Source of the DNA: a virus
Direction: 5' to 3' (one strand)
Virus record (IMG/VR): IMGVR_UViG_3300049830_000142
Span: 32,001-96,000 of that record
Length of the DNA stretch: 64,000 nucleotides
The notes beneath the pieces are model-generated. The model had not been told where the DNA came from. It made no database searches and was given only the letters and a program-made list of their open reading frames with translations. Below are positions 13,864-53,481 of this stretch, in pieces (positions within the stretch are counted from its first letter, which is position 1; each line of letters starts with the position of its first letter). Both the position numbers and the translations under genes were made by a program.

Positions 13864-13889
13864 AAAGGGGACTGCAAACCCTTTTTTTT
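13864..13889 (+). terminator. intrinsic terminator at convergent junction
   Basis: AAAGGG-N9-CCCTTT plus T run. Confidence 0.65.
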
Positions 13890-15696
13890 AGCTAAGAGGA
13901 TTCCTAGACCAGTAGTTCTGATCTCCCTCAGTCATCATGTGGAGGATCTCGTCATTCATCTGCTCTTTACGATTAGCCAAAGCTCTGATGTATTGATCAA
14001 CACCACCCGGCTGTTTATTAAACGTCATTCTATCCCAGAAAGAAGGCTGTGGTTGGGCTAAGTAACGTTGCACTAGTAGATTCTGTTTATCGGCTGGCAA
14101 GTCGTCATGAGAGTGGAAACGAGCACCTCTACCAATGATCTGCTTTTCCTTAGCTACATTAAAGTGTGGGTCAAGCATCTGGATTAATCTAGTACCTCTA
14201 AGATCCAATCCTTCTGCACCAGCTGAGCTAATTAGCAAAGCCCTTATCTTATTAGCATTGTAATCCCTGACCATCTGCTCACGTTGTGCTGGGTTAACAG
14301 CACCTGAGAACTCGCCATAAGGAATGTTGTTCTTTTGCAACAGCTGTTCATAAGGCTTTAGACCACTCTGCAAATAGTTACTATAGACCACACCTTTATA
14401 ACTAGGGTCTTTAGCCATCTGTTGTTTAAGGAAACGGAAAGCATTGTCAATCTTAGGCTGCTGTAACTCATTCTTTCTAGTAGTGAAACCAGAGGTAGTA
14501 TTACTAACCTGTCTCACACCTCCTAAGAATGCTCGCATAGGCTCGAGCTCACCTTTACCTGGGGGCAAACCATTCCTGACTTTCCATCTCACCCACCAAG
14601 GAGCTTTACCCATGATAGAGTTGTAGATGTCTTGTTGATGCTGACCCATAGGCACAGCAACTTCTTTTTCAGTTACACTAGGGTAGCCTTCGTGTGGCGC
14701 GGCGTAGTAGTCTACGTACTTATCTAAAACTTTCTTCAACTCATCTCTGTTTTGAAGATGTTGTTCAACACCAGGCTTAACACCCATGAGCTTTCCTAAG
14801 ATACCTGGACTGACTTCCTCTTGCTTAAAGTACTTTTGATTGAAAGCTCCGGGAGAAGAAGGCAACACATCTTTACCAGCCGCTAAGTTAACTATGTTAG
14901 CTAAATCTGCTGGATTGTTATAGAGTGGTGTGCCTGAGAGTAGTAGACGTTTCTTAGGATGAGTCCTCTGAAGAGCTTGGTAAAGCTGGCTATTAGGATT
15001 ACGAGCTTTCTGCACTTCATCTACAATCTGTAATCCTTTATCATACATCGGAGTCTTGAGAGTGGGGTTCGCCAATCTCTGCTGACTTACGATGTTGACG
15101 TCTCTCGGAACACTACCTGTCCACTTCCTAAGCTCTTTACGATAGTTTTCTTGTAGAGCTGCTGGAACAACTACGTCAGTCGGCATCTTCAAAGACTTAT
15201 AGGCTTCGATACTAGACTTAGTTTTACCTGAACCAGTAGAATGAAATAGTACTAAACCTCTAGTACCTGGCTGATTAATCTTACGGACTACTCTAGCTTG
15301 TTGAGGAGGCATGTTAGCATCCCTCTCCTTGTCAAACTCAGTCCAGTCAGCTTTCTTTATAGCTCTATTACTTAACTGACGGTTACCTCCAATTACGGGG
15401 TAACCTTGGCGTCTCAATTTTTTAGCTAACAGTTCTTCAGCCTTCTCAGCTTCAAAGAAACTTAGTCTATTCTTATGAAATTCAGGTCTTAGCTTCAGAC
15501 CATGATTCTTCACCCAAGTGTTAGCTTTCAAGCCTTCCTTATGTTTCTTAAACCTTTCTTCAGCAGAAAGGCCGGACATACCTACGTAGAGCGGAGGTTT
15601 GTCTGGGTTATAGCTAGGATTAAGATCTCGTACTTTTTTTCTGTCTAGTACTTTCTTATCCAACTCAACCACATAAACGTTGTGAATTCCTGCCAT
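13888..15696 (-). CDS. GIY-YIG-like nuclease domain fused to SNF2/NPH-I-like SF2 helicase
   Basis: NVYVVEL...LYVGMSG...ERF N-domain; HSTGSGKT, DEVQ, SGTP, GAEGLDLRG, QIIGRGAR helicase motifs. Confidence 0.85.
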   Translation of the reverse strand: MAGIHNVYVVELDKKVLDRKKVRDLNPSYNPDKPPLYVGMSGLSAEERFKKHKEGLKANTWVKNHGLKLRPEFHKNRLSFFEAEKAEELLAKKLRRQGYPVIGGNRQLSNRAIKKADWTEFDKERDANMPPQQARVVRKINQPGTRGLVLFHSTGSGKTKSSIEAYKSLKMPTDVVVPAALQENYRKELRKWTGSVPRDVNIVSQQRLANPTLKTPMYDKGLQIVDEVQKARNPNSQLYQALQRTHPKKRLLLSGTPLYNNPADLANIVNLAAGKDVLPSSPGAFNQKYFKQEEVSPGILGKLMGVKPGVEQHLQNRDELKKVLDKYVDYYAAPHEGYPSVTEKEVAVPMGQHQQDIYNSIMGKAPWWVRWKVRNGLPPGKGELEPMRAFLGGVRQVSNTTSGFTTRKNELQQPKIDNAFRFLKQQMAKDPSYKGVVYSNYLQSGLKPYEQLLQKNNIPYGEFSGAVNPAQREQMVRDYNANKIRALLISSAGAEGLDLRGTRLIQMLDPHFNVAKEKQIIGRGARFHSHDDLPADKQNLLVQRYLAQPQPSFWDRMTFNKQPGGVDQYIRALANRKEQMNDEILHMMTEGDQNYWSRNPLS

Positions 15697-16391
15697 TATT
15701 GTTTAGCCATATTTTGGCTTTTCAAAAATTGTTCTATCAGACTAATCCTACCTGCATTTCTCTCAGGTGTTTGTTGGTTAACTAAAGAATTTTGCATTTC
15801 TTTTGCTGTATTCTCATAGTTGTTTGCCTTTAATGATTCTAGTAGTTTTGGCCACTTTGTCAAACTACCTGTTTGATAGCCTAAGTCAACTACTGAATCT
15901 TTGACTGGTTGTGGAGTTGAACCCCAATTATTACCAACCAACTTCCCAATACTAGCATCTACATTGTTAACTTTATTAGTCAAGGCGCTGGCAGCTTCAG
16001 GTTCAGTTACCTTACCTAACTGCAGCATTTTAGGATCAGTTGAGCCATAGCCTATTGTCTTATGTCCTAAAGTGTCATTGTAAGGTTCACTACGAAATCC
16101 TTCTTCCTGTTTTAACCTAGCATAAATATCAGGGCTTGAAGCAACTCTTGGTGCTGTAGACACGGGTGGAATAGAGACAGGTTGTGCTCTATGTAATGGT
16201 GTCATAGTACCATCTGAATGCCTGGTAACCGGATTCTGGATAGACTTGGCAACGTCACCGGCTATCCTAGTTTGCGCAGGTTGTAATCCTACTTTAGGCG
16301 CTTGCTGCACATTTACTCCTGTACTAACTGAATTAGTCAGGACAGCTGCTTTGATCATGCCAGTCAAGAATGCATTAAAGACTTTACTCAT
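15696..16391 (-). CDS. GH24 (T4-type) lysozyme with N-terminal KAA leader
   Basis: EEGFRSEPYNDTLGHKTIGYG catalytic E-D-T pattern; AFLTGMIKAA leader. Confidence 0.85.
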   Translation of the reverse strand: MSKVFNAFLTGMIKAAVLTNSVSTGVNVQQAPKVGLQPAQTRIAGDVAKSIQNPVTRHSDGTMTPLHRAQPVSIPPVSTAPRVASSPDIYARLKQEEGFRSEPYNDTLGHKTIGYGSTDPKMLQLGKVTEPEAASALTNKVNNVDASIGKLVGNNWGSTPQPVKDSVVDLGYQTGSLTKWPKLLESLKANNYENTAKEMQNSLVNQQTPERNAGRISLIEQFLKSQNMAKQ

Positions 16392-16508: not shown

Positions 16509-19466
16509 ATGCGCTATACTGTATTAGACAAAGGCAACTTCAAGAAAGTAGATAAGCTGGACGACGACCATCTATCATTTCCTAGTTCCCGAGACCTATT
16601 TTCCATGCCCAGTAACCTTATCACAGGATTGGGTGGTGTGTCTGGTGGTCGTATTTTGCTAGGTGCCAAGGCTTCACTACAAAGCATTCCTCTAGTCAAC
16701 CCAGAAAGACCTTTAGTAGAAAGCTCAGATGACAATGACAAAGAGAGTACTCAAGAAAAGTTTGGTAAGCATTATCTGTCAGTCACGGCTACAAAACCTG
16801 GTATAGTTGATGAAGTGACTGATGAGCATATCAAAGTAAAGAATAAGGATGGTAGTCACAGTACTTATCAGCTTTACAAGAATTTTAACTTAGGACGTAA
16901 AAGCTTCATTACTAACACTGCGATAGTGAAGGCTGGTCATCAAGTGAAGACAGACGAGGTGTTGGCTCACTCCAACTACACCGACCCTAAAGGTAACATG
17001 GCATTAGGTGTTAATTTGACTACCGCTATCATGCCATTTAGATCCGACAACTTCGAGGATGCTTATGCTGTGACTGAGTCAGGTGCTAAAAAGTTGGCAG
17101 CGGAACAGATGCTAAAATATCATCTAGAAAAGAAATTTGGTGTTGATGCAGACAAGAATAAATTTATTGCGCTATTCCCAAACAAGTATACCAATGATCA
17201 AATCAAAGGTATTGACTCTGATGGTGTAATCAAACCTGGTACTGTAGTTCATGCAGGTGACCCAGTTCTATTAGCTTTTTCTCCTAGAGCACTTAAAAGC
17301 ACAGACTTAGCATTAGGTAAACTAAGCAAAGTATTGAAGCACGCTTTCAAAGATAACTCTGAGATCTGGGACTATGAACATCCTGGTACAGTCGTAGATG
17401 TATCTAAGCACGGTGAGTTGATTACAGTTCACATTAAAACTGAGCGTAGTCTATTACCTGGTGATAAGATTGGTAGTATCTTCGGTGCAAAAGGTGTAGC
17501 CACAATTATACCAGACTCACAATCTCCGACTACTCCTGATGGCAAGCCTGTGGATATTATGCTTAACTCAATGAGCATTACATCTAGAGTAGCCCCAGCT
17601 CTAGCCGTTACACTAGGACTAGGCAAACTAGCTCAAAAGAAAAAGGAAGTGATCAAGATGGACCAGTTCACTAAAGAATCGTCAATTGGTAAAGTTCTTA
17701 AAGTACTGGCCAAGAATGACATTTCAGATACCGAGACTGGTAGGAATATTGAGGCTGTTGTTGGACCTCTTTATTATAATCGTCTTACTCACATCTCTGA
17801 GGACAAGCTCAGTACGAGGTCGCAGGGTACAGGCTACTCGTTCGACATGCAGCCTAGCAAAACGACTGGCGAATCTAGTAAAAGGATCGGTAACCTTGGT
17901 ACTACTGCCTTGCTTAGCCATGATGTTAAACATGTATTGGAAGACATTGGTACCGTTAAAGGTACAAAGAACGATGATTTCTGGAGAGCCCTTAAACTAG
18001 GCCAGACTCCACCACCACCTAAAGTACCTTTCATTTTCAACAAGTTTATTGCTAGCTTACAGTCTGCTGGGGTAAACGTGAAACGAGATGGCAGTGTATT
18101 TAACATCATGCCAATGACCGACAAGGATACGTTGGCTATCAGTAATGGTGAAATCAAAAAGCCTACGATGTTCAAACCTCATCAAGATGAACTAGTGCAT
18201 GAACCAGGTGGTCTATTCGATCCTAATACAGTCGGTATCTTGGGTGACAAGTTCAATCATATTAGTCTTAACCATTCCGTACCTAATCCTATCAGCGAAG
18301 ACTATCTTCGTAAATTGTTAGGAGTCACTAAACTCAAGTTTAATGCTATGGTGGTAGATGGTACGATGGAAAAAGAATTAGGCAAGATGAACCTCGACAA
18401 CAAGATTACTGAAATGCGTCAGTATATCGAGGGCGGTAAAAAGACTAAACGTGATGATGCTGTAAAGATTTTGGAATTTTTGACTACGTTAAAGAAGAAG
18501 GGTATCAAGATTAGCGATTTGATGTTGACCAAGATTCCTATCTTACCAGCACAGTTCAGACCAGCTAGTAAGATGGGTGACGTTGTATTGACTAGCGATG
18601 TAAACAACCTTTACAAAGATCTTATCCTAAATAACAATTCTTTGAAAGATACGGCACATATACCTGAAGAGTTGATCAGCAAACTAAAGCAAGATCAGTA
18701 TGACGGTGTAAAGGCTGTGTTTGGTTTGGGTGATCCTATTAATAAGAAGCATGCTGATAAGAATGTAAAAGGTATCTTAGCTACTATGCTAGGTCTAAAA
18801 GGCGGTACTGCTAAATCAACGATGTTCCAGAGCAAGGTCGTTAATAAATCATTGGACTTAGTAGGTAGAGCAGTTTTGACTCCTGACACTAGGCTAGACG
18901 TGGATCAAGCTAGCGTCCCTCAAGATTTGCTGTGGCAGGTATACAAACCTTTCGTAATTCGTAGATTAGTCATGAAAGGCGTCCCAGCTGTATCTGCTGT
19001 AGACTATGTCAAAAAGCACAGTTCGTTGGCAGTTCAAGCTTTGAAAGAAGAGATGGCTGAGAGACCTGGTATTGTAACTCGTGACCCAGCTTGGCACAAA
19101 TTTAACTTGATGGGTTTTCATCTCATCCCTAATCCTAATCCTAAGGACAAGACACTAAAACTAAACCCATTAGTGTTCAAAGGATTCGGTGCTGACAACG
19201 ACGGTGACCAGCTAAACATCCACGTACCGGCTACTGAAGAAGCTAGGAAAGAAGTATTGGCAAAAATGTTACCTAGCAAGAACTTGTTATCAGCCAAGTC
19301 ATTTAGCCCAGTACTCATTCCATCAAACGAATCAGCTCTAGGTTTATATTCGCTTAGCACTGAGAAGAATACTAAAGCAGCCCGTAAATATAAGACGGAG
19401 GCGGAGGTGGTGAAAGCCTATAACTCAGGTCACTTAGAAGAGGGTGACCAGATAGAAATAGGATAA
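16509..19466 (+). CDS. rpoBC: RNA polymerase beta(C-half)-beta'(N-half) fusion, catalytic subunit
   Basis: beta motifs NFEDA, GDKIGSIFGAKG, LTHISEDK, KVPFIF; beta' motifs PILPAQFRP, SDVNNLY, DLVGRAV, RDPAWH, ADNDGDQ. Confidence 0.92.
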   Translation: MRYTVLDKGNFKKVDKLDDDHLSFPSSRDLFSMPSNLITGLGGVSGGRILLGAKASLQSIPLVNPERPLVESSDDNDKESTQEKFGKHYLSVTATKPGIVDEVTDEHIKVKNKDGSHSTYQLYKNFNLGRKSFITNTAIVKAGHQVKTDEVLAHSNYTDPKGNMALGVNLTTAIMPFRSDNFEDAYAVTESGAKKLAAEQMLKYHLEKKFGVDADKNKFIALFPNKYTNDQIKGIDSDGVIKPGTVVHAGDPVLLAFSPRALKSTDLALGKLSKVLKHAFKDNSEIWDYEHPGTVVDVSKHGELITVHIKTERSLLPGDKIGSIFGAKGVATIIPDSQSPTTPDGKPVDIMLNSMSITSRVAPALAVTLGLGKLAQKKKEVIKMDQFTKESSIGKVLKVLAKNDISDTETGRNIEAVVGPLYYNRLTHISEDKLSTRSQGTGYSFDMQPSKTTGESSKRIGNLGTTALLSHDVKHVLEDIGTVKGTKNDDFWRALKLGQTPPPPKVPFIFNKFIASLQSAGVNVKRDGSVFNIMPMTDKDTLAISNGEIKKPTMFKPHQDELVHEPGGLFDPNTVGILGDKFNHISLNHSVPNPISEDYLRKLLGVTKLKFNAMVVDGTMEKELGKMNLDNKITEMRQYIEGGKKTKRDDAVKILEFLTTLKKKGIKISDLMLTKIPILPAQFRPASKMGDVVLTSDVNNLYKDLILNNNSLKDTAHIPEELISKLKQDQYDGVKAVFGLGDPINKKHADKNVKGILATMLGLKGGTAKSTMFQSKVVNKSLDLVGRAVLTPDTRLDVDQASVPQDLLWQVYKPFVIRRLVMKGVPAVSAVDYVKKHSSLAVQALKEEMAERPGIVTRDPAWHKFNLMGFHLIPNPNPKDKTLKLNPLVFKGFGADNDGDQLNIHVPATEEARKEVLAKMLPSKNLLSAKSFSPVLIPSNESALGLYSLSTEKNTKAARKYKTEAEVVKAYNSGHLEEGDQIEIG

Positions 19467-19496: not shown

Positions 19497-19721
19497 ATGA
19501 TTGTAACTAAAGACTTGTGGCTCACGCTCACTCCAAAACAAAGGTTGGAGAAGTTAACGGAAGCCCTCTCACAATTGAAAGAAATTGGCACAAAGAATAG
19601 TAGACTCAAGGTAAAAGTTGACCAAGGAAGATTGGCCAACGCTAAGAAAGACCTCGAAGCTTTTGTGATTAACGTCGTGACCTGGGAATCTGATAGACAG
19701 CTACAAAAATATCATGGATAA
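19497..19721 (+). CDS. hypothetical protein
   Basis: ORF, coiled-coil-like. Confidence 0.6.
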   Translation: MIVTKDLWLTLTPKQRLEKLTEALSQLKEIGTKNSRLKVKVDQGRLANAKKDLEAFVINVVTWESDRQLQKYHG

Positions 19722-20217
19722 AGTTTGCCATAAGTGCGATGAATCAAAACCAACGACAGAATTTCGTAATAGAAAATCTGCAGCGGATGGCTTATCCTAT
19801 TATTGTAAGAGTTGCCTACAAACTAATGACAAGGGTTACTACAAGAAAAACCATGCAAAGTGTATACAAGCTGGTGTGAAATATACACGTAATCGTAGAA
19901 AAACAGATATAACCTTTAGATTACGTGCATTACTGAATAACAGAACTAGAATAGCAATAACGTCCAATTTGAAACAATCAAGTACAATTAAACTGCTTGG
20001 ATGTACCATCCTACAAGCAAGAAAATACATAGAGTCGCAATTTAAGCCTGGTATGAATTGGAGTAACCATTCATTAACAGGTTGGCACATTGATCATAAA
20101 TTACCTTGTGCAGCCTTCGATTTAACGAAAGAATCAGAGCAAAGAAAGTGTTTTCATTACACTAATCTCCAACCTCTTTGGGCTCATGAAAATCTTTCAA
20201 AAAGTGATAATATTTAA
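19714..20217 (+). CDS. HNH homing endonuclease (WHIDH..PC..FDL family)
   Basis: CHKC N-terminal motif; WHIDHKLPCAAFDL...CFHYTNLQPLWA.ENL.K. Confidence 0.88.
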   Translation: MDKVCHKCDESKPTTEFRNRKSAADGLSYYCKSCLQTNDKGYYKKNHAKCIQAGVKYTRNRRKTDITFRLRALLNNRTRIAITSNLKQSSTIKLLGCTILQARKYIESQFKPGMNWSNHSLTGWHIDHKLPCAAFDLTKESEQRKCFHYTNLQPLWAHENLSKSDNI

Positions 20218-21479: not shown

Positions 21480-21826
21480 TGAACTTCACTTTACTACAGT
21501 CTTTCTTGGAGCAGTCTTACAACTCAGCCAATCCTAAGATTAAAAGAGCAGCTGAGACTTTGACTGACCAGATGGTGGCCGCTAAAGAGACGGAAGAGAT
21601 TGAGCAGCCGACACTACATTCTGAGGAACGTAATCAGCCGTTGAATAACAGACCTAAGGACGAGATCGATAAACATCTATCTACTTGGATGCCTGATATC
21701 GTAAAACCTGATCCTGAAGTATCTGAATTCGGTAAAGCGGCTTCTATGTTTGACTTATACAGTAAAAAGTTGAATACTAAGCCTACACTATTTCAAAGAT
21801 ATGGCTTACACAACAACGGTAGGTAA
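21479..21826 (+). CDS. hypothetical protein
   Basis: ORF with KRAA, GKAA motifs. Confidence 0.7.
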   Translation: MNFTLLQSFLEQSYNSANPKIKRAAETLTDQMVAAKETEEIEQPTLHSEERNQPLNNRPKDEIDKHLSTWMPDIVKPDPEVSEFGKAASMFDLYSKKLNTKPTLFQRYGLHNNGR

Positions 21827-23711
21827 AATCCTACTGAAACATTACAGTCCGGCGGCGACACACGCATTCCTAGATAGTAAGGAGCTTGACAAAAAGAACA
21901 TCGGAGCTTTCTTTGCTAACTTAGCTGAGAAGCATCCGGAGGAGTACATGAAGACTGTCTCTGACCTAACGAGACTAGGCTTCGAGTCAGCTACTAGATT
22001 AGGTAGCACAGTTAGACTAGGCGACCTTGCTCCCCCAGATTTCAAGGACGAGGAGTTCAAAAAACTTCACGCCGAGATCGCAGGTATTCAGGCTAAGAAA
22101 CTTACTAAGGTAAAACAGAATGACGAAATCATTACTGCCCTTAACAAGTTCTCAGGCGACATTGACAAAAGGTTAGTTGAGCATGGTGTCAAAGAAGGTA
22201 AGACATTGGCGAAGGTTGTTAGGGCCGGTGCTCGTGGTAGCCCATCCCAGTATCGTCAAACTATTTTTTCTCCCGTAGCTGTCAATGATAACAAGGGCAG
22301 CGTTCTTACTGATTTCGTAATCGACAGGTCTTTTGCTGAAGGCCTCACCTTACCACAATACTTGGCGCATACCTTCGGTGCTCGTCAAGCTTCTGCAGCT
22401 ACTAAACTAGCTGTTGCTGACGCTGGTTACTTAGGTAAACAATTGGCCAGAGCTGGTATGACGATGAAAGTCGAGATGCATGACTGTGGTACTGATAGTG
22501 GTATTGCAATCAAAGTCGAAGACAAAGATTACCTCGGTACTTATTTAGCCAAGGCGGTTGATAAATATAATCATAACAACGAAGTCACTTCTTCGATGTT
22601 AGCTGACCTCAAAACAAAAGGGGTTGCTGACATTATTGTCCGTAGTCCTATCACTTGCCAAGCTAGTCACGACTCTCATCCAGGTGCAGTATGCCAACTA
22701 TGCGCAGGTAGACGTGAAAAAGGATTACCTGAGATTGGATCTTTCTTAGGAGTTGTGGCTGGAACTACTTTAGCTGAACCGCTATCACAAGGTATGTTAA
22801 ACTCCAAACACTCTGGTGGTTCAGCGAGAACTGCTACGTCATTTGGCGGTTTCAAATACGTTAACCAACTATTCAACATACCTGACTCTTTTGTACATGA
22901 GGCTCCGCTAGCTAACCATGACGGTGTTATTGAAGAAGTCAGACCAGCTCCTCAAGGTGGTAACTATGTCGTAGTCAAACATGTTAACGGCAAGACTGAA
23001 GAACACTACGTTCATCCTGACCTCAACGTATTCATCAAACCTGGCACTGCTGTCGAAGCCGGTGATGTATTAAGTGATGGTATTCCTAATCCAGCCAAGA
23101 TCGTTAAACACAAAGGTATTGGTGAGGGTAGAGTCTACTTTGCTAACGCAGTAAAGAATACATTTGAAAACAGCCAGCTAGGTGGTATCAACAAACGTAA
23201 CTTTGACATCATCAGCAAAGGTATCATTACGCACGTCAAAATTACCAACCCTAAAGGGTTGGGCGACCACTTGCCAGATACTATCGTCAATTACCATAGT
23301 TTAGAGAAGGCTTATACTCCTAGACACGATAGCCGCAAAGTTAGAGTAGACCAGGCAAAGGGATTATACTTGGAAATTCCTGCATTACACTATACAATAG
23401 GTACTAAGCTAACAAGCCATATGATGGACAACCTAAAGAAGCATGGTGTATCATATGTGACAGTACACGATGACAGTCCTGGGTTTGAACCTGAGATGCA
23501 ACGTTTGCTAGATGTTCCAGCCCACGAGCATGATTGGATGCACGCGCTGTACAGCACAAATTTGGAACGCAGATTAGTTAAAGCAGTTAATACTGGAGCT
23601 TCAAGCAGTATTGCTGGCCCTTCGCCTATACCTGGCCTGGCTTATGCCGTCGGCTTTGGTAAGAAGTCTGAGGAAGTCGAGCAAACTGAAGAAGCCTTAA
23701 GTTTCGAATAA
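21801..23711 (+). CDS. rpoC: RNA polymerase beta' C-terminal subunit
   Basis: TTVGKILL; bridge helix GLTLPQYLAHTFGAR..AGYLGKQL; DCGT; RSPITC...CQLCAG; trigger loop AEPLSQGMLNSKHSGG. Confidence 0.92.
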   Translation: MAYTTTVGKILLKHYSPAATHAFLDSKELDKKNIGAFFANLAEKHPEEYMKTVSDLTRLGFESATRLGSTVRLGDLAPPDFKDEEFKKLHAEIAGIQAKKLTKVKQNDEIITALNKFSGDIDKRLVEHGVKEGKTLAKVVRAGARGSPSQYRQTIFSPVAVNDNKGSVLTDFVIDRSFAEGLTLPQYLAHTFGARQASAATKLAVADAGYLGKQLARAGMTMKVEMHDCGTDSGIAIKVEDKDYLGTYLAKAVDKYNHNNEVTSSMLADLKTKGVADIIVRSPITCQASHDSHPGAVCQLCAGRREKGLPEIGSFLGVVAGTTLAEPLSQGMLNSKHSGGSARTATSFGGFKYVNQLFNIPDSFVHEAPLANHDGVIEEVRPAPQGGNYVVVKHVNGKTEEHYVHPDLNVFIKPGTAVEAGDVLSDGIPNPAKIVKHKGIGEGRVYFANAVKNTFENSQLGGINKRNFDIISKGIITHVKITNPKGLGDHLPDTIVNYHSLEKAYTPRHDSRKVRVDQAKGLYLEIPALHYTIGTKLTSHMMDNLKKHGVSYVTVHDDSPGFEPEMQRLLDVPAHEHDWMHALYSTNLERRLVKAVNTGASSSIAGPSPIPGLAYAVGFGKKSEEVEQTEEALSFE

Positions 23712-23712
23712 T

Positions 23713-25185
23713 ATGTCCTCAATCAACGATACTTGCAAGAACTGGTTAGATAAGCAAGGCTCAGCTTTTTCAGAAAGTTTCAAGGGCTTAGGCTCTCTCG
23801 CATTCAAGCATCTTAAGCAGTCACCTGGTTATGTTGCGAGCACAGCTAAGGTCGGTTTAGGCTTAGGCGTTGGAGCTGCGTTAGGTGAAACTGGTCTTAG
23901 AACTGCCAACAACTGGGCACATGGAGATCCTAGCTTAGGCGCACCAACTTCTACACAACATGCTTTAAGTAGCTTTTATGATAGTCTAGGTACTGGTGCT
24001 CATATTAATCCAGCCATTGCGGCTGTATCCAATAAAGTACTAGACTCAGTTGATGTAAATCCTAAAGCACAAGAATTTTTGTCAGCCGCAGCTAACATTA
24101 CCAATCCTGCTGTACGTAAAGTTTTGATGGGTGACGTTGTTAACGCAGCTGGGCAAGCCTCTGGAGCTGTTGCAGAAAATGTAGGCGGTACAGTAGGTAA
24201 CGCTTTAGGTCAAGGAGTGGGTCACGGTATGGCTGCTGGTTTCTGGGAGAACTTAAAGCATAATCCTATTCCTACTGTAACTGGTGCTGCAGCTGTTAGC
24301 GCAGGACCTTTGATAGCTTATGACATGTTGACTAAGAAGAGAAGACAACAAGAAGCTAAGCGTAATAAAGCAATTCTCCGTTATATCCTTCACCATGAAA
24401 AGGGTGGTTTACAAAAGTCCGGAAATATAGCGCAATCTATAGAATCTGGTGTGAAAGGAATAGCTAGTTCCCCTTTTTTCAAAAAGTTTGTTTATAGACC
24501 TACCGGCATCCCTGCTGATAAAGGTCATATAATGGATGCTTACATGGCCTTCAAAGGACACGTACCAGGTAAAGTAGCTGACAAACTTAAGGAATATCCT
24601 CAGACTCTTTTTAACAATACTGTAACGAGACATCCTATTTCAACTCTTGTAGGCGGTGGTGCAGGCGTTGGCTTTGCACAAACAATGGCTGAGTCTGCTA
24701 CTAAAGAGCGCGCCAATGATTACTCAACAGCTGGCGGTGCTTATGGGCATATGATTAAGAACATGACCGCTGTACCTGGATCGGTTGTTGAAGGTGTAGA
24801 GGGAGGCCTCATGCGTAGTTCAGCGTTACCTCGTGGAGATAAATCTCAATCAGTGGCTAAGATAAACGAGATAATTAGTAACTTTACTAATCCTAATAAA
24901 GATTACGCTTTACCACCGGTTGACCCTAGCTATCGCCCACCACACATGCAATTTTCTCCTGAGCAACTAGAACAGCTAAGAAATGCTGATTTAGGCTTAG
25001 GTGTTGATAAGGGTAAACCTTTAGGTTGGGGACCTTATGCTGCGCTCACCGGTTTGTTTGCAGCACCTGCAGCAGCTTACGGAACATACAAACACTTTGC
25101 AAACAAGAAGGTTGACAAAGCGGTTGACAAAGCTGATAGGATGCAAAATCAGTTAGAGCATGTTAACAAGCTAGTTGAAACATAA
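23713..25185 (+). CDS. large Gly/Ala-rich protein with two K-x-G-led membrane modules
   Basis: LDKQG and LQKSG; hydrophobic helices followed by basic clusters. Confidence 0.8.
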   Translation: MSSINDTCKNWLDKQGSAFSESFKGLGSLAFKHLKQSPGYVASTAKVGLGLGVGAALGETGLRTANNWAHGDPSLGAPTSTQHALSSFYDSLGTGAHINPAIAAVSNKVLDSVDVNPKAQEFLSAAANITNPAVRKVLMGDVVNAAGQASGAVAENVGGTVGNALGQGVGHGMAAGFWENLKHNPIPTVTGAAAVSAGPLIAYDMLTKKRRQQEAKRNKAILRYILHHEKGGLQKSGNIAQSIESGVKGIASSPFFKKFVYRPTGIPADKGHIMDAYMAFKGHVPGKVADKLKEYPQTLFNNTVTRHPISTLVGGGAGVGFAQTMAESATKERANDYSTAGGAYGHMIKNMTAVPGSVVEGVEGGLMRSSALPRGDKSQSVAKINEIISNFTNPNKDYALPPVDPSYRPPHMQFSPEQLEQLRNADLGLGVDKGKPLGWGPYAALTGLFAAPAAAYGTYKHFANKKVDKAVDKADRMQNQLEHVNKLVET

Positions 25186-25223: not shown

Positions 25224-27470
25224 ATGAACAGCCAGATTAAATTAGCTGCTGGAGATCAAGAGTTTGAGCAGGCCTTTTTTCAATTAGCCTATGACAAACT
25301 ACAAGGAAAACTAAGCAACCTAGTACCTTTCTTAGTAGGATTTCAGCTAGTCAAGAAGTCCGACAATGATACCAAAGCAGTCGGTGTATTCGGTTTTAAG
25401 AGCAACAATGGACAGATCCTATTTGTTCCTGCCTTCTTCGTGAATGGCAAGATCAAGGAGCTGGAAATCCTCTATAGCCGTAACAACAACCAGTTTTATC
25501 CGCTCAATGAAGATTTCGCTGAGCTCTTTTTGAAAGACGATGTTACCGGTATTGGTACTCCTAGTAACGAGAGAAAAGAAGATGTACAACGCGATATACC
25601 TAGCGCTAACATGCGCAAGATTATCTTCCCTCCTAGGACAGGTCGTGTTAGCTATGCTGAAGCCAAGGACTTGGATGAAAAGAATCCTGAAGTATTGTCT
25701 AAGGCTGCTGACTGTTTGTTAAGCAAGAAAAGCTATAACAAAGGTCCAGAGCTAATCGACTTCGTCAAATCAGCAGACAACAAGGTCAAGGAAGCGTTCT
25801 TCTTTATGTTAAACAAGAATGCTGAGTTTGCAGACGCTGTGCGCTCATTCTATCCTGACTCAGCTATCGCAGATTCTCTAACCGTAGCTCCTGTAATTAA
25901 GGAAGCCAAAGCTAAGAAGCTCAAAGTATATGACTTTGAAGCTGACACTGATCTCGACAAACTCCCAGCCTCTAATAAGAAAGAGTTAGTGACCAAAGGT
26001 GTTACTATCGTAGATAATAGGTTAGACGAGGATACTTCTAAGCTAGGTATCTTCAAAGTCAAAGAGTCATTTTCAAATCCTACTCAAACTGGATTCTATC
26101 CTTATATCACTGAGTTAGGAACTATCCGTTACGGTCTAGTATTAACAAATCTTTCAGCTTTCATGGGTGGCTATAACTATCCTAGAGCTATTGTAGTAGA
26201 CTTGCAATCTCCTCGCAAAGGCCAGGCTTACGAAGTTGAGTTATCAGGCATCTTCATCAAAGATCAGATCCACGTTAAAGATCTTTCAGACGCAATGAAG
26301 TTGTTAGAGGAGCCGGCTGAAGCATTGCCTAGTTACGAAGACTATATTCTCATTAACGAGAATTTGCATACTACAGAACCTTTCAGGATTATCGAGAACT
26401 ACAAAGACAGTTCAGGTGTCCGCAGAATCAAGATTGAACCTTCTTGGATGTGCGACGCTTCTCCTCGTCCTAATAGCTTTGATCCTAAGACTAAGGGTAA
26501 GCAGAACGAAGTAGTATTGGTTTTGACTAAGAAGGTTGGTGACAGACTTGAGCATCGTAACCATGCAGTCTACGTCCCTAAAAGTTTCAAGCTATTGAAG
26601 CTACACCTTAGCGACTACTACAGCCCTGAGATAGACTACAATCTCCCTAAAGATGAACGTGATAGGAAGCGTAGTACTATTGAAAAGGACAAGGCTGAAA
26701 TCAAAGCTGGTGCTCCTGGTGGCTTAAGCAGCCTAAATAGTTTCCTACACTCCAACAATACGTTCCCACTCACCATTCATACCAATGGTTCTGAGTACTT
26801 CCTTAACGTAAGTGGTGCTAAGGCTAAGTTTGAAAATCCTCTCGAAGCTAAGATCGCAATGGTCACTGAACTTGGTTTGAGAGAGAAGGATGCTGAAGCT
26901 GCTATCACTGATCTTATACCTAACAAAAAGAGAGACGGTATCGTTAAAGTTTCAGTAACTGGTGAAAATATTCTCAATTTACAAGACGAAACACCTGAGA
27001 ACAACGAGTTTGGACAACCCACTTACTACGGTACTCCTTGGGTAGACCAACATGACGCTTCAGATGGCTACGCTAAAGACCCGACAGAACAAGGTTTAGG
27101 TGTTAAACCAGATGACGCATCACTAAGCACTACTATTAGTCGTGCTGTTAACTTAGCACAACAAGGTCAGAAGGATGTGTTTGATACACAGACTATTGGT
27201 GCTTTGGCTAAGTATACAGACAGCAATAACAAGGTCTTGGAGTATGTACCTAGCTTCGTGTCTTCACTAGATAAACTTGGTCGTATGTTGTTTCTAGCTT
27301 ACTGGGACACTGATACTTTTGAAGACATGTATGGTAAAGACGAATTACCTGAGCTCATTGAGCTAGTCAAAAGCGTATTCAACAATTTAGGAGATCTCGT
27401 CATCTTCTTGAAACGTAAAGTTCCTGACTTGTCTATCAACGACAATGAACAGAGTAAGAACGACATCTAA
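25224..27470 (+). CDS. large hypothetical head-region protein
   Basis: 748 aa, IKLAA leader; no family recognised. Confidence 0.8.
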   Translation: MNSQIKLAAGDQEFEQAFFQLAYDKLQGKLSNLVPFLVGFQLVKKSDNDTKAVGVFGFKSNNGQILFVPAFFVNGKIKELEILYSRNNNQFYPLNEDFAELFLKDDVTGIGTPSNERKEDVQRDIPSANMRKIIFPPRTGRVSYAEAKDLDEKNPEVLSKAADCLLSKKSYNKGPELIDFVKSADNKVKEAFFFMLNKNAEFADAVRSFYPDSAIADSLTVAPVIKEAKAKKLKVYDFEADTDLDKLPASNKKELVTKGVTIVDNRLDEDTSKLGIFKVKESFSNPTQTGFYPYITELGTIRYGLVLTNLSAFMGGYNYPRAIVVDLQSPRKGQAYEVELSGIFIKDQIHVKDLSDAMKLLEEPAEALPSYEDYILINENLHTTEPFRIIENYKDSSGVRRIKIEPSWMCDASPRPNSFDPKTKGKQNEVVLVLTKKVGDRLEHRNHAVYVPKSFKLLKLHLSDYYSPEIDYNLPKDERDRKRSTIEKDKAEIKAGAPGGLSSLNSFLHSNNTFPLTIHTNGSEYFLNVSGAKAKFENPLEAKIAMVTELGLREKDAEAAITDLIPNKKRDGIVKVSVTGENILNLQDETPENNEFGQPTYYGTPWVDQHDASDGYAKDPTEQGLGVKPDDASLSTTISRAVNLAQQGQKDVFDTQTIGALAKYTDSNNKVLEYVPSFVSSLDKLGRMLFLAYWDTDTFEDMYGKDELPELIELVKSVFNNLGDLVIFLKRKVPDLSINDNEQSKNDI

Positions 27471-31325: not shown

Positions 31326-32687
31326 ATGATAAAGTTCACCAGCAACAACGACTGGGTATTCAATTGTGAGAGCGTAGCAATACTGCGTGATTTCTCCCGT
31401 GACCTAGTTAAAAGGGCCAGTGCTAAGAATCTTGCGAACTACGAAAAAGATCCTAAGCAAGAGCACCTTCACATTATTGCTGTAGGAGCTTACGAAGGAA
31501 CTGGTTTCAACCGTAATGGTGACGCTTTCCTAGAAGAGGACTGCAAAAAGAACCATCACTATTTTTCTAAGAGTAACAGAGCTGTCCATCGCCACCACAA
31601 GAACAAGCCTAACGATCCTAAGTATGGTAATATCAAAGCTGCATCATACAACGATAAGATGCGCAGAATTGAGTTAGTTGTAGGATTGGACAAAGGCGCT
31701 TGCGCAGACATTTTACATGAGCAGGAGACGACTGGTAACACTAACTGGTCTATGGCTTCTAAGCAAGCCGAAGACATCTGTTCATGGTGTGGTCATCATG
31801 CCAAGACTGACAATGACCGTTGTAACCACTTGCCTACTAACATAGGTGAGTTGAATAAGAAGGGTGAGATGTGCGGTATGATCAATCCAGACCCTAGGTG
31901 GTTTGAGATTAGTTATGTGCGCAGACCTGCTGACAGAATTGGTATGAGCTTAGGAAAGGTAGCTTCTGAGATCACTTACAAGTCAGCCGCTTCTTATCTT
32001 AACATCTATGGTGATCTTTATATCCCGGACGATGTACTACTAAGCAAGAAAGCTAGTGACAAACGTGAGCTTTTGAGCAAGCTAGCTGAGATAGAAAAGC
32101 ATATTGATGCAATATCTCATAGCAATCCAGACAACTCTAAAGATAAGTTCATCAAAGATCATGGACACAAGATTAAGCATTCTCCTAATATTGCTCCTGA
32201 CAATATTGAGTCCCTCAGAACGATGGAGCCTAGCATGGTCCTTAAGACACTTGCTGACCATGGTATCGTATTCAGCCCAGAAGATTTTAGCCGTTACCTG
32301 TTCGACAACCAAGTAAAGCCTGGTCATGTAGAAGGTATGAAGAGTCACTTACCACACATCTTCAATCATCTACATAACGAAGACGCTGGCAAAGCAGTGA
32401 ACGATGAGAAGTTTGATCCTGGAGCCGGTACTCCTCCAGCTGAACTAAAGAACTTGGGCGGCAAACTACATGAAGGACATTCTTTACATGAAGGACCTGC
32501 TATTAGACGTGTCATGCACATTGGTGGAGGTAGTCTATCTCCTCATCACGAAGCAACTAAACAAGCAGCTGACCTAGAATTTGCTAAGCAGTACGCTACA
32601 TATAAGTTGGCTGCCCTTAGCTATATGAACGAACAGGGTAAGCTAACTGATGATGTAATCTTAAACGCAGTATTGCAGAACCAGTAA
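31326..32687 (+). CDS. prohead maturation protease with C-terminal extension
   Basis: FNRNGDAF, HRHHKN, WSMAS, CSWC...CNH, FEISYVRRPAD; upstream of scaffold/capsid. Confidence 0.75.
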   Translation: MIKFTSNNDWVFNCESVAILRDFSRDLVKRASAKNLANYEKDPKQEHLHIIAVGAYEGTGFNRNGDAFLEEDCKKNHHYFSKSNRAVHRHHKNKPNDPKYGNIKAASYNDKMRRIELVVGLDKGACADILHEQETTGNTNWSMASKQAEDICSWCGHHAKTDNDRCNHLPTNIGELNKKGEMCGMINPDPRWFEISYVRRPADRIGMSLGKVASEITYKSAASYLNIYGDLYIPDDVLLSKKASDKRELLSKLAEIEKHIDAISHSNPDNSKDKFIKDHGHKIKHSPNIAPDNIESLRTMEPSMVLKTLADHGIVFSPEDFSRYLFDNQVKPGHVEGMKSHLPHIFNHLHNEDAGKAVNDEKFDPGAGTPPAELKNLGGKLHEGHSLHEGPAIRRVMHIGGGSLSPHHEATKQAADLEFAKQYATYKLAALSYMNEQGKLTDDVILNAVLQNQ

Positions 32688-38688: not shown

Positions 38689-39651
38689 ATGTCACTAGAA
38701 AAAATCGCAGATATCAAGGTGTTCAATGATACCTTCGTAGATATGTTGGAAGGTGGTAACGAGAAGAAGGCTGCTCAATCAGCTCTAACTTTTACCCGCA
38801 ACAAGCTACGTGAAAACTCATTCTCTGAGAAGATCCTAACTCCTATCGACATCGCTAACGATGAACTCGATAAGAGCGAGAATCCTGAGCTCCATGTTAA
38901 GTGGTGCGACAGGGAACCAGATCAGCCGCCCGCAGTAACTGTGCCTTTGGGTAACGTTCCTGATGGCTACCAGTTCTCTGGTACGCGCTATCCTGTGTAC
39001 TTCTCACGTTTAATGAGCCCAGTATTCCAGAAGGACATCGACAAATTGCGTGGTTACGACTACGACATTCGCCAAATCCTCTTGGAGAACAGCACCAAAG
39101 ACTTGGCTACCGAAGTCGATAGCAAGTTCTTGGAAAAAGTTAACCAGGTTCTCGGTGTTGCTAACACAGCTAACACCTTCACTGCAACCGGTCTTCCTAG
39201 CTACATCACCCTATCCGGTGGTCTAACTCGTACCAACATGGTAGAAGCTGTTAAGGCTTACCAGCGCCTACGCGTTCCGTTTGGTCCGATGCAGCCTGAT
39301 GGTGGTGCAAGCAAGGGTATCATGCTCTTGAACAACGTAACCGCAGCTGACCTACTCAAACTAGAACGTAGCGAAGTCGGTGGTGACGAAGCTCAGAGGG
39401 CTTACCTAGAAGGTACTACTCCAGCCACCGTGCTCGGTCTCAAGTCAATCTTGACCATCAAGCGCGAATTGGTACCGGATGGTACTATCTACTTCTTCTC
39501 TTCTGAGGAGTTCCTAGGTAAGTATTTCCGCCTACAGCCTTTGACTGTATTCATGGAAACTAAGGCGTTCTTCCTACAGTTCTTCCAGTACATGAACATA
39601 GGTATGAGCATCGGTAACCCTAAGGGTGCCTTCCGTGTAGACTTCAACTAA
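38689..39651 (+). CDS. major capsid protein (HK97 fold)
   Basis: KLRENSFSEKIL...REP...DIRQIL..KDLATEVDSKFL; position after scaffold; followed by strong terminator. Confidence 0.8.
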   Translation: MSLEKIADIKVFNDTFVDMLEGGNEKKAAQSALTFTRNKLRENSFSEKILTPIDIANDELDKSENPELHVKWCDREPDQPPAVTVPLGNVPDGYQFSGTRYPVYFSRLMSPVFQKDIDKLRGYDYDIRQILLENSTKDLATEVDSKFLEKVNQVLGVANTANTFTATGLPSYITLSGGLTRTNMVEAVKAYQRLRVPFGPMQPDGGASKGIMLLNNVTAADLLKLERSEVGGDEAQRAYLEGTTPATVLGLKSILTIKRELVPDGTIYFFSSEEFLGKYFRLQPLTVFMETKAFFLQFFQYMNIGMSIGNPKGAFRVDFN

Positions 39652-42540: not shown

Positions 42541-43950
42541 ATGGCATACTACGTACCATCACTGCTAATCAACCAGGAATTCACACAAATTCCTACGTTT
42601 ACGCAGAGCCCGCTTTCAGCTTTGATCATTGGTCCCATTTTTACAATTAATGGTGTCAATACGATTACTGTAGGCGCAGGCGGAACAGGTTACACTTCAG
42701 CACCTACTGTAGTCATCACTGACACAACTGGTCATGGTGCTACCGCAACAGCTTCTGTTACTTCAGGCGCTGTAACAACGATCACAGTCAACAACAAAGG
42801 TTTCAACTATACTAACCCTACGATTACTTTTGTAGGTGCAGGTACTGGTGCAACTGCAACTGCTGCACTATCAACTACTCGCTCTTCAACGGTATTTACT
42901 GAAAATTCAATTACCACAGCAATCGGTGCAGTAAATAGTCATGCAGATATTTTGACACAGCTCGGTGATATCGCTCCAGGAAATCCATTGGCATACGCAT
43001 GCTATATGGCACTCCTCAATTCTAACAACACTACCGTATACTACGGTGCTGTTGGTACTAACGACTTGTCCGGTTACACGACTGTACTAAGCAATCTCGC
43101 AACTAAGAGCAACAACTACTACGGTATCGTTCCTCTCAGCACTGACTCAACAATCACAGCAGCGGTCATTGGTCACGTAAATGCAATGAGCGCAGCTTCA
43201 GCAGCTAAATGGAGAACTTGCTGGTTGACTGCCTCACTATCTGGTTCAGGTAGTATTCAATCTCAGGTAGATGCTCTAGCAGCTTCTATCACAACTGTAA
43301 ACAGTGCACAGACTGTAATCAGCAGCGCAAATGGGAACACTGGCCCTCGTCGTATCCATTACGTATTCCCTGACACATTCTATGTCGATCCAACTACTTC
43401 AGTAGCTGGTTATTTCCTATCTGCTGCACTAGCCGGTCTTCGTAGCGGATCTGTTCCTCATCAGAGCTTGACTAACACTCAAGTCATTGGACCTTATTAT
43501 CTAGACAAATGTGTAACTACTTTGACATCCACTCAGTTGGATACGCTAGCTGCCGCTGGTACATGGATCGTTACCCAGAATGCAAAGGGTGGCGTCGCTT
43601 ATACTCGTCAACAGCTAACCGCTGACAACTCTGGCAACCTTAACTTCGCTGAAGACAGCGTCGTAGCTAACGTAGACAGCATTAGCTATGGTTTGCAAGC
43701 CGCTCTCGCACCTTTCGTAGGTGTATACAACATTACTCCAGCCTCTGTTCTCAAGATCAAGGCTGCTGTCGATGCTGAACTAAATTATCGTCTAACTAGC
43801 ACTTACACTGAACGTGCAGGTAACCAGTTGAATGGTTACACTATCGTAAAAGTTGTGCAGAATGCGACGATTCTGGACCAGGTTGACGTTGTAGTTCAAC
43901 TACAAGTCCCATATCCAGCTAACTTTATCACAATTACGTTGAGCATCTAA
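42541..43950 (+). CDS. contractile tail sheath protein
   Basis: ALAGLRSG..PHQSLTN; C-terminal VVVQLQVPYPANFITITL. Confidence 0.85.
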   Translation: MAYYVPSLLINQEFTQIPTFTQSPLSALIIGPIFTINGVNTITVGAGGTGYTSAPTVVITDTTGHGATATASVTSGAVTTITVNNKGFNYTNPTITFVGAGTGATATAALSTTRSSTVFTENSITTAIGAVNSHADILTQLGDIAPGNPLAYACYMALLNSNNTTVYYGAVGTNDLSGYTTVLSNLATKSNNYYGIVPLSTDSTITAAVIGHVNAMSAASAAKWRTCWLTASLSGSGSIQSQVDALAASITTVNSAQTVISSANGNTGPRRIHYVFPDTFYVDPTTSVAGYFLSAALAGLRSGSVPHQSLTNTQVIGPYYLDKCVTTLTSTQLDTLAAAGTWIVTQNAKGGVAYTRQQLTADNSGNLNFAEDSVVANVDSISYGLQAALAPFVGVYNITPASVLKIKAAVDAELNYRLTSTYTERAGNQLNGYTIVKVVQNATILDQVDVVVQLQVPYPANFITITLSI

Positions 43951-51769: not shown

Positions 51770-53481
51770 TGAATTCAAATATCAGCATTGAGCTAACCAC
51801 AACAGACGCTGGTTTGGCTACACTAATCAAAAACGTACGTATTACCGGTGCTACGTTATCCTATGGCATCAATAAGCTGCCTATAGCTCACGTACATATT
51901 GATACAACAGTTAGCGATGATTTGACTAGCTCACTACAGATCCTTTGTGACTTCGATAAGTTTAGAAGAAAAACACTGTCGTTGACTGTCAAGACCGGTG
52001 GGCTAGTATATGACGCAGGTTGTCTAGAGTTTGACGGTATACTAGACGGTATTAGCATCTCACAACAACCTGGAGGTTTGAGCGCTTCATTAGTCATCAA
52101 ACACCAATTTGTATTACTGAATGAGGTCTACCCTAGATTGCTTGGTCTAAGCGCTGGTAGTTCCAATATGTTCTCAGTAATGAGACCTATACTCTATGAT
52201 CCGAACCAGTTTGGTCCTGGCTCAGAAAATAACCATTTCCTCATACCTGACATGCAGTTGTATGGATTGATCACTGGTAAAGACCCGAACAACAAAGTTA
52301 ACACTGGTCTACCTCTGATACCGTTCATCATCGAAGTATTCAAGGCTGTAGTAAAAAATCAATCACTCTACAACATCGGTCCTAACACGCCAGCATTCCA
52401 AAGTATCAGTAACGCTTTGCGAGATGTGATCAAAGAGCAACAGATCAACGCAGATAAGACTGGTGAGCTATTTAAGCTAGTAATGAAACTACTTGGACAG
52501 GTCAACACAGAGTATAGCAGTCTGTTATCACTGTCAGGTAATGACCATTTGCTTAGCGCAGCTAGCCCAACGATCGCAGCTAAAGTAATAGGTGACATAG
52601 CTCAGTTAGACGACACTATCTACAATTCAATGGTTCGTTACGTAGGTCAATATGGTTGCTGTTTTGTAGTGTCTAACGACACTGCTTATGTAGTGCCTGA
52701 TGCATCTTTTCTTAGAGTTGAAGTAGACCCATCATTGATTAAAAACAGTAGGTCTTTACAAACTAATATAGCTTACCCAGCAGACTACGAAACTTTCTCC
52801 TTCAACGATACTGGTGAGAACACTATCAAAGGTGTATATGTTGTTCCTGAACCACTAGGTATGAACGGTACCTGGGCTGTGGGTGGTATCAATGTCATGA
52901 GTGGTAGATACGTTGATCCTAATCCAGGTGTAAAGGGAAACATTGTTGTAAAGACTTTGCCTCAAATAGCTTGTTCTTATATTAGCAGGATAGCTTCACA
53001 AGGTAGTATGGGTGTACAGAAGATAGTCCATACTGGTAACAGCTTGATTGATGGAGCAATTGATACTGTAGAAGCTTATGCTAGTATGCAGCTTCACAAA
53101 ATACAAACTGCTTTAGAGTATGGACAGATGCAGGCGTTCATCAATGCCTGGGCTCAGTCTGAGTATTGCAGGATCAAGTACGAAGATAGAACTGGTTATC
53201 TATCAATGCCATTTAACAACAACTGGGTGCCTGGAGCTCCTGGTGCTGCGCTAGCCAAACATCCTGGTACTTGGGTCCAGTTCTACGTCACTGACGTAAC
53301 ACATACTTTCAACCTAATGCCTAACAACTCCGGCACAGCTACTACCAACGTATCATTCAAAGGTGGTAGACCAGGACTTGTAGCAGGATATACTGGACTA
53401 ACGACTGTCCCTCTGTATAATTACAGTTACGCGCTTAGTCAGAACTTTGCAGACCAGTTCTTGGCTGACATAACACCATGA
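51769..53481 (+). CDS. baseplate hub protein (gp27-like)
   Basis: LSYGINKLPIAHV, FDGILDG, YVTDVTHTF motifs; position. Confidence 0.65.
   Translation: MNSNISIELTTTDAGLATLIKNVRITGATLSYGINKLPIAHVHIDTTVSDDLTSSLQILCDFDKFRRKTLSLTVKTGGLVYDAGCLEFDGILDGISISQQPGGLSASLVIKHQFVLLNEVYPRLLGLSAGSSNMFSVMRPILYDPNQFGPGSENNHFLIPDMQLYGLITGKDPNNKVNTGLPLIPFIIEVFKAVVKNQSLYNIGPNTPAFQSISNALRDVIKEQQINADKTGELFKLVMKLLGQVNTEYSSLLSLSGNDHLLSAASPTIAAKVIGDIAQLDDTIYNSMVRYVGQYGCCFVVSNDTAYVVPDASFLRVEVDPSLIKNSRSLQTNIAYPADYETFSFNDTGENTIKGVYVVPEPLGMNGTWAVGGINVMSGRYVDPNPGVKGNIVVKTLPQIACSYISRIASQGSMGVQKIVHTGNSLIDGAIDTVEAYASMQLHKIQTALEYGQMQAFINAWAQSEYCRIKYEDRTGYLSMPFNNNWVPGAPGAALAKHPGTWVQFYVTDVTHTFNLMPNNSGTATTNVSFKGGRPGLVAGYTGLTTVPLYNYSYALSQNFADQFLADITP

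Follow-up and report, generated by a model that had tools for sequence, protein, structure and literature searches.

In Helicobacter and Wolbachia a complete beta subunit of RNA polymerase (RNAP) is fused to a complete beta-prime; these enzymes keep alpha, omega and the zinc-binding domain. The characterised multisubunit RNAPs of phages, those of phiKZ and AR9, consist of unfused pieces and use no sigma factor, and the way in which they come together in the absence of alpha is still an open question (PMC7598289). Here we analyse a 64,000-nucleotide stretch of viral DNA (hereafter the window), which corresponds to bases 32001-96000 of the 134,588-bp IMG/VR record IMGVR_UViG_3300049830_000142, estimated by CheckV to be about 62% complete. 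The gene at 16509-19466 encodes a single chain of 985 amino acids that begins in the middle of beta and ends within beta-prime. We conclude with good confidence that this is the fused central chain of a four-gene phage RNAP of bacterial type, that the fusion belongs to a large phage family, and that the division of beta into further genes came later, in one subclade.

Anatomy of the fused chain

The 985-aa chain is of bacterial type and has both double-psi barrels on one polypeptide. Its frame holds 985 open codons and is closed upstream by a stop after just 11 more codons. Within the one chain Pfam recognises Rpb2_6 at residues 95-450 (E 1.7e-39), Rpb1_1 at 647-716 and Rpb1_2 at 782-918 (E 7.7e-16). 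A phmmer search of the PDB matches residues 11-525 with the beta chain 8i23_C, at its positions 622-1157 (E 1.7e-42), and residues 608-983 with the beta-prime chain 8i23_D, at positions 186-561 (E 1.1e-39). In E. coli numbering the beta-prime part extends from about residue 20, as judged by eye, to about residue 550, of which 176-522 is covered by alignment, and the chain also aligns to residues 196-546 of cyanobacterial gamma (RpoC1). An initial annotation, made from the letters alone, had read the open reading frame (ORF) as running without a stop from mid-beta through the beta C-terminus into beta-prime. The domain matches bear this out, and the motifs it quoted, KVPFIF..SAGVNV, the catalytic loop and PVLIPSNE, are all found in the chain.

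By alignment, all catalytic elements are retained: the three aspartates, K328 and the clamp helices on the fused chain, and the bridge helix and trigger loop on a separate beta-prime C part (Table 1). K328, the catalytic lysine, lies in the motif IFGAKG and is invariant in 75 sequences and in 164 of 165 family members; D896, D898 and D900 are invariant throughout our alignment A1. The first position of the metal-binding loop, at which the bacterial Asn is thought to contact the ribose of the nucleoside triphosphate, varies across the family (G in 76, N in 64, A in 12 and T in 10 of 165 members), these counts being approximate because inteins at the loop disturb the alignment.

Table 1. Polymerase genes and associated features. 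Positions are those of the window, except where marked as record numbering.
Feature	Position	Strand	Description
beta-C/beta-prime-N fusion gene (P0001)	16509-19466	+	985 aa; catalytic core chain of the phage RNAP
Beta part of fusion, residues 1-~527	16509-18089	+	Hybrid-binding domain, beta double-psi barrel, flap, wall and beta clamp end; equivalent to bacterial beta ~622-1157
Beta-to-beta-prime junction	18066-18113	+	SAGVNVKRDGSVFNIMPMTD; ~8 linking residues between beta C-terminus and beta-prime N-terminus
Beta-prime N part, residues ~528-985	18090-19463	+	N-terminal clamp without zinc-binding domain, clamp helices, catalytic double-psi barrel
Beta-prime clamp helices, residues ~685-745	18561-18743	+	Predicted dock for sigma region 2; helices 697-711 and 720-738 in the model
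Metal-binding loop GADNDGD	19188-19208	+	Bacterial NADFDGD; all three Asp retained, first position Gly
Beta-prime C part (P0002)	21801-23711	+	636 aa; bridge helix and trigger loop; separate subunit
beta-N1	G000:C1:29367-30065 (record numbering, before window)	-	232 aa; equivalent to B. subtilis beta 39-219
beta-N2	G000:C1:22176-22859 (record numbering, before window)	+	227 aa; equivalent to E. coli beta 421-572, fork and rifampicin-pocket region
SNF2-type helicase	13888-15696	-	602 aa; Pfam SNF2-rel_dom and Helicase_C; divergent to the nearby fusion gene
Sigma70-family factor	53478-54116	+	212 aa; phrog_351 sigma factor (2.8e-15); 35% identical to Arash gp10
Likely major capsid protein	38689-39651	+	29% identical to Arash gp226

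The junction

The stretch between the two PDB alignments, when read by eye, contains the extreme beta-prime start (IMPMTDKDTLAISNGEIKKP..GGLFDP..) and has lost the four-Cys zinc-binding domain, the cysteines of which are absent from this region in 164 of 165 family members. No insertion or deletion interrupts the junction in alignment A1, which includes relatives at 33-40% identity, and the DNA at 18040-18160 shows neither a homopolymer run nor any other error-prone feature. The same uninterrupted frame was found in all 80 independent IMG/VR loci checked at the DNA level, in hundreds of protein clusters and in cultured phages, and because of this recurrence chance, sequencing error and assembly artefact are excluded. 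A stop codon lost, or two adjacent genes joined by a frameshift, in assembly or annotation is thus a negligible explanation: we found no point in its favour, and the homologous protein of Salmonella phage Arash, gp206, is covered by peptides over 100% of its length in virion mass spectrometry (PMC10585845).

The whole 985-aa chain was modelled with AlphaFold2 from a 75-sequence alignment (pLDDT, the predicted local distance difference test, 88.7; pTM, the predicted template modelling score, 0.80), and at the junction the model consists of ordered strands with pLDDT 89-95. The best Foldseek matches of the model are bacterial beta chains, over about 560-620 columns, and no single solved chain among the Foldseek matches spans both halves of the fusion. 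These strands bear on a different reading of the locus, in which the fused ORF encodes a precursor that is cut near the junction, for instance by the prohead protease at packaging, so that separate beta-C and beta-prime-N chains act as in phiKZ-like enzymes. Such processing would agree with the presence of the Arash protein in virions and with the proteolytic processing that many of the internal head proteins of large phages undergo, and the strong conservation of the junction could mark a processing site. Against this, the link is too short (about 8 residues) and too well ordered to look like an exposed linker, and no protease motif was identified. Moreover, in bacterial RNAP the beta C-terminus adjoins the beta-prime N-terminus, and natural as well as engineered whole-subunit fusions are active. 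Cleavage near the junction is on balance improbable, and we continue with an intact fused chain.

Distribution among phages

The fusion is the norm for a large and nearly unstudied phage family, of which the present genome is a derived variant. When the GenBank phages were searched with tblastn, matches in a single piece over 95-99% of the ORF were obtained in Arash and in Vibrio phages D69, D148 and D181. Arash gp206 (OQ632216; 1525 aa, annotated 'RNA polymerase subunit beta') is 31% identical to the fusion over 99% of the 985-aa ORF, and the D69 protein, of 1527 aa, is annotated 'hypothetical'. The protein collections contain 324 clusters at E<=1e-20; the best 120 of these include 119 relatives, 111 of 900-1050 aa, at 52-84% identity and on contigs of up to 293 kb. 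More than 150 representatives (clusters at 50% identity) match at E<1e-165. At least 557 IMG/VR contigs encode a relative of the fusion when alignment A1 is used for the search, whereas a related-loci search with the single fusion protein as query gave no match.

Most of these relatives are longer than the present chain. An N-terminal extension occurs in 126 of 147 representative clusters, and since most of the extensions hold collinear homologs of beta-N1 and beta-N2, the majority of the family has a whole beta fused to beta-prime-N, in chains of about 1450-1530 aa. At the DNA level the N-terminal part lies in the same frame in 62 of 80 IMG/VR loci. All 15 loci at 51-78% identity, on the other hand, have a stop 9-38 codons upstream, which gives the 985-aa form. 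The beta-prime C part is fused in none of the 147 representatives.

The initial annotation had proposed a distinct architecture, with a central core chain and peripheral pieces. That description stands insofar as both barrels lie on one chain and the other pieces are separate, but the arrangement was not built from scratch, as it probably derives from the whole-beta fusion that prevails in the clusters and loci just counted. Nor is it unique to this genome, given that GenBank already holds the fusion in Arash gp206 and Vibrio D69. The same annotation had considered that the arrangement might be the described norm of a known phage family. It is indeed the norm of a large family, and we found no paper that describes it (subscription journals lay outside the search, and a description elsewhere is possible); the Arash paper lists gp206 simply as beta and leaves the fusion unmentioned (PMC10585845).

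About 60% of the representative relatives contain insertions of 150-1300 aa, mostly of an intein-like size (330-530 aa). They cluster at three conserved motifs: the fork motif (26), the beta GxKG motif (25) and the metal loop of beta-prime, where about 50 occur and about 25 more were counted as C-terminal extensions. These sites correspond to G000:C1:~22680 (fork) and to window positions 17478-17495 (GxKG) and 19188-19208 (metal loop). The close relatives P0008-P0010 and P0072 give LAGLIDADG and intein-splicing Pfam matches, of which there are none in this phage.

Probable detachment of the N-terminal beta segment

In the subclade of the present phage the first approximately 460 residues of beta have become detached as two small genes. 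Both were located in the record by a search with Pfam Rpb2_3 together with tblastn using Arash gp206, and both are intact. They lie on opposite strands, 2-10 kb before the start of the window and 18-26 kb upstream of the fusion gene; the initial annotation had correctly placed the N-terminal half of beta outside the window. Residues 36-227, 233-469 and 484-1525 of Arash gp206 match three separate loci of this genome. The order and orientation beta-N2 (+), beta-N1 (-), fusion (+), each as a separate intact gene, are shared by five of five subclade relatives, one of them a 204-kb genome with terminal repeats; across the five, the two small genes are 44-78% identical to those described here.

In a FastTree phylogeny of the shared region the sequences around P0001 that lack the N-terminal part form a clade (support 1.0), whose sister group (support 0.95) consists of whole-fusion sequences, those of Arash and D69 among them. 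The 985-aa form is therefore likely a derived fission specific to this subclade. A second group without the N-terminal part, elsewhere in the tree, suggests that fission occurred more than once. P0180 and P0169 are other relatives that lack this part. The distant relatives L052 (IMGVR_UViG_3300008108_000260) and L073, at 36-37% identity, have no N-terminal part in frame; in L052 homology to beta-N1 and beta-N2 lies nearby but out of frame, either as an independent split or through a frameshift.

An origin of the fission points from intein sites was considered and rejected, as only a few insertions of the family lie near the two fission points and no extra sequence resembling an intein half was found in beta-N1, in beta-N2 or at the start of the 985-aa ORF. 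The absence of intein halves from these genes also suggests that the four pieces associate non-covalently.

If the two small genes were decaying remnants, the minimal core would be the fusion and the beta-prime C part only. Two-barrel polymerases as small as YonO and the crAss-like enzymes do exist, and the beta2 lobe (B. subtilis beta ~220-370), which has no counterpart between beta-N1 and beta-N2 as judged by sequence, has probably been lost in the whole family already. Decay is nevertheless very improbable, seeing that both genes are conserved and collinear in all five relatives and carry the motifs of the fork and rifampicin pocket, which line the active-site channel. We accordingly keep both as working parts of a four-piece enzyme.

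Completing the enzyme

The rest of beta-prime is, as had been annotated, a separate gene. P0002, the ortholog of Arash gp216, matches Pfam Rpb1_5 (2.8e-17) and the end of Rpb1_3, and over residues 4-496 it can be aligned with M. smegmatis beta-prime 664-1182. Because residue 18 of P0002 falls opposite residue 9 of cyanobacterial RpoC2, beta-prime is broken almost at the site used in cyanobacteria and phiKZ.

The initial annotation had also suggested a search of the genome for the beta N-terminal half, alpha and omega. The first was found, as two genes; with the Pfam models PF01000, PF01193 and PF01192 neither alpha nor omega gave a match at E<=1 in the record, in Arash or in D69, while 14 of 14 control genomes were positive. 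There is one catalytic set per genome in this phage, in Arash and in D69, and since there is only one, the enzyme probably serves later stages of infection too. Scans for sigma70-type promoters and for terminators around the polymerase genes gave counts that were not above those in shuffled sequence.

Initiation and packaging

The sigma70-family protein of the window is the likely initiation factor of the phage polymerase. Its residues 3-116 align to regions 2-3 of SigA (1.7e-6); the Pfam scores for region 2 (17.6 bits) and region 3 (19 bits) are both under the cut-offs, and homologs match region 3 and sometimes region 4_2 or a helix-turn-helix. Members of the sigma family and the fusion gene are found together on long contigs. 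A complex prediction had been proposed with the initial annotation and supports the pairing: together with fusion residues 300-985, sigma docks on the clamp helices with an interface score (ipSAE) of 0.68 against 0.00 for the best control, a mark reached by 58 of 80 solved complexes and by 2 of 110 mismatched pairs. The docking runs share at least 92% of their contacts, partner pLDDT is at least 76, and the predicted interface joins clamp helices 685-729 to sigma residues 22-39. As sigma region 2 and the clamp helices are a textbook pair, this result may reflect likeness to solved holoenzymes and is not proof of binding.

Arash carries two sigma-like genes (OQ632216, 120974-121165 and 11892-12596), one being gp10, which is present in virions, and the other matching region 2 more strongly; the pair may supply stage-specific factors for its single polymerase. 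One sigma was found in the present record, which is 62% complete.

The SNF2-type helicase is 34% identical (E 2e-84) to Arash gp217, which in Arash adjoins the gene of the beta-prime C part. In Arash virions no other protein, not even the capsid protein, reaches the spectral count of gp206, and the helicase gp217, the sigma gp10 and gp216 were detected as well (PMC10585845). RNAP and sigma genes lie among structural genes in both phages. Here the polymerase, sigma and helicase genes are found inside a structural block with counterparts of gp218 (25224-27470), gp222 (31326-32687) and gp236 (42541-43950).

By analogy with Arash, carriage of the enzyme in the virion of the present phage is somewhat favoured. 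It competes with a scheme in which the polymerase is made after infection for middle and late genes, early genes being read by the host polymerase with the phage sigma, which could in principle bind the host core enzyme. The authors of the Arash study caution that abundant intracellular enzymes might co-purify with particles (PMC10585845), and Arash stands outside this subclade. A spectral count that tops all proteins, the detection of the accessory subunits and factors beside gp206 and the position of the genes among structural ones are less readily accommodated by such a scheme, as are the co-variation of sigma with the polymerase on contigs and its predicted docking on the phage clamp helices. 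Synthesis after infection is unlikely, though of all the alternatives weighed here it is the one to be taken most seriously, and packaging of the enzyme remains the explanation that we prefer.

Surrounding genes

A lysozyme gene (15696-16391) sits between the helicase gene, on the minus strand, and the fusion gene. The two polymerase genes of the window are separated by a 167-aa ORF resembling endonuclease VII or HNH proteins (19714-20217, +; phrog_1035, 9e-22), which is possibly a homing endonuclease of the free-standing kind; a homing endonuclease is likewise encoded close to the polymerase gene in Vibrio phage D69. A 490-aa ORF (23713-25185, +) begins 2 bases past the stop of the beta-prime C part. 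Searches of Pfam, PHROGs and PDB gave no match for it, and Arash has no homolog; its product may be a structural protein or a polymerase partner specific to the lineage. An ORF of 272 aa that lies outside the window (G000:C1:21358-22176, +) ends on the start codon of beta-N2. With its conserved Cys and His it looks like a papain-type peptidase.

Discussion

We propose that the fusion acts as the central chain of the enzyme. Because its beta half and beta-prime part carry both barrels, the active centre would form within one polypeptide, and beta-N1, beta-N2 and the beta-prime C part would complete the enzyme by non-covalent assembly. The tether and the beta-prime split after the barrel would be ancestral to the large family that includes Arash and D69, and the detachment of about 460 beta residues into two scattered genes would be a later event that became fixed in the subclade. 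The covalent tether may replace the missing assembly platform of alpha dimer and omega, a proposal to which we give about even chances. Initiation would depend on the phage's own sigma70-type factor, and the enzyme, sigma and SNF2 helicase would be carried in the virion and transcribe early genes, by homology with Arash.

Several points weigh against this interpretation. The activity and assembly of the enzyme are predicted throughout the family, which is known from its genes. The absence of alpha and omega from the present record is weak evidence, as the record is only about 62% complete, so that the case stands mainly on the complete genomes of Arash and D69, and very divergent alpha or omega proteins could be missed by the Pfam models. 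To the caution about co-purification it should be added that packaging in the virion is known for Arash and is extended to other members by analogy. Finally, the FastTree phylogeny is midpoint-rooted and has no cellular outgroup, for which reason the polarity of the fission is likely but not proven.

The family is a much larger and less divergent counterpart of the characterised phage enzymes, one in which the catalytic subunits are tethered and a recognisable sigma is kept, while alpha, omega and the zinc-binding domain have been dropped, as probably has the beta2 lobe. Taken further, it might represent a second, independent, self-sufficient transcription machine of phages: sigma70-dependent, without alpha and omega, carried in the virion, with the tether in the assembly role of alpha and with peripheral modules (beta protrusion, fork, beta-prime jaw, trigger) that became detachable once the barrels were tethered. 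This is a tentative idea that we rate somewhat below even; if true, it would amount to a natural dissection of which RNAP parts need covalent linkage. In any case the four-gene form is a natural experiment on where beta tolerates cuts. The family includes Salmonella and Vibrio phages in culture; as these can be propagated and purified, biochemistry and cryo-electron microscopy are feasible, and the fusion sequences should be useful as phylogenetic markers for widespread phages of 180-220 kb.

Relation to described polymerases

The closest counterparts are Arash gp206 and gp216 and the proteins of Vibrio phages D69, D148 and D181. They share with the present enzyme the junction, the beta-prime split after the barrel with a separate beta-prime C part, and the loss of the zinc-binding domain; these phages further have orthologs of the sigma (gp10) and the SNF2 helicase (gp217), a single polymerase set and no alpha or omega that could be found. 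The difference lies in beta, which they keep whole in one chain of 1525-1527 aa, with about 470 more N-terminal residues, where the present phage has two separate genes.

Beyond this family, as the initial annotation had noted, neither cellular RNAPs nor the whole-subunit fusions of Helicobacter and Wolbachia nor the phiKZ and AR9 enzymes have this layout. The phiKZ and AR9 enzymes are likewise two-barrel RNAPs made of beta and beta-prime pieces only, without alpha and omega (PMC7598289, PMC7824862). Their beta-prime is split just past the barrel near the cyanobacterial site, their beta comes in N- and C-terminal pieces, and a virion form exists for phiKZ and AR9. In contrast to the present locus they have no fusion of beta to beta-prime and no sigma70-type factor (gp68 or gp226 stand in that role), and they come in two paralogous sets, a virion and a non-virion enzyme. 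The phiKZ type is also far more divergent from bacterial subunits: the match to phiR1-37 has 22.5% identity (E 6e-9), whereas the present chain matches bacterial chains at 1e-42. The rpoB-rpoC fusions of Helicobacter and Wolbachia have the same end-to-end tether, from the beta C-terminus to the beta-prime N-terminus. In the present phage, however, beta-prime ends at about E. coli residue 550, the fused beta begins at about 620, and there are two cuts in beta.

The mReC phages of Weinheimer & Aylward (2020) are, like the present one, uncultured large tailed phages with a bacterial-like beta and beta-prime that branch outside the cellular clades. Their beta (920-1563 aa) and beta-prime (902-1370 aa) are encoded by separate genes in every listed contig, and the survey that defined them retained sequences with an NADxDGD motif and at least 800 aa per subunit (PMC7481178). 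The GADNDGD loop and the 636-aa beta-prime C part fail these filters, so the survey would exclude the present phage, and the same motif and length filters explain why this principal metagenomic survey of phage RNAPs did not pick up the family. An assignment of the present phage to mReC was rejected, since in the mReC supplement the two subunits never share a gene. Moraphages (PMC12619734) encode no RNAP and have no bearing on the comparison.

In cyanobacteria and plastids, beta-prime is divided into RpoC1 (gamma) and RpoC2 at almost the same place, but cyanobacterial gamma is a chain separate from beta and belongs to an enzyme with the full alpha2-omega core. Both barrels also share one polypeptide in the RNAPs of the crAss-like gp66 type, in YonO and in the P23-45 enzyme fused to a tape-measure protein. 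Sequence similarity between those single-chain RNAPs and bacterial beta and beta-prime is not readily detected, and they require no additional core subunits, whereas the chain described here is plainly bacterial in type and needs three more pieces.

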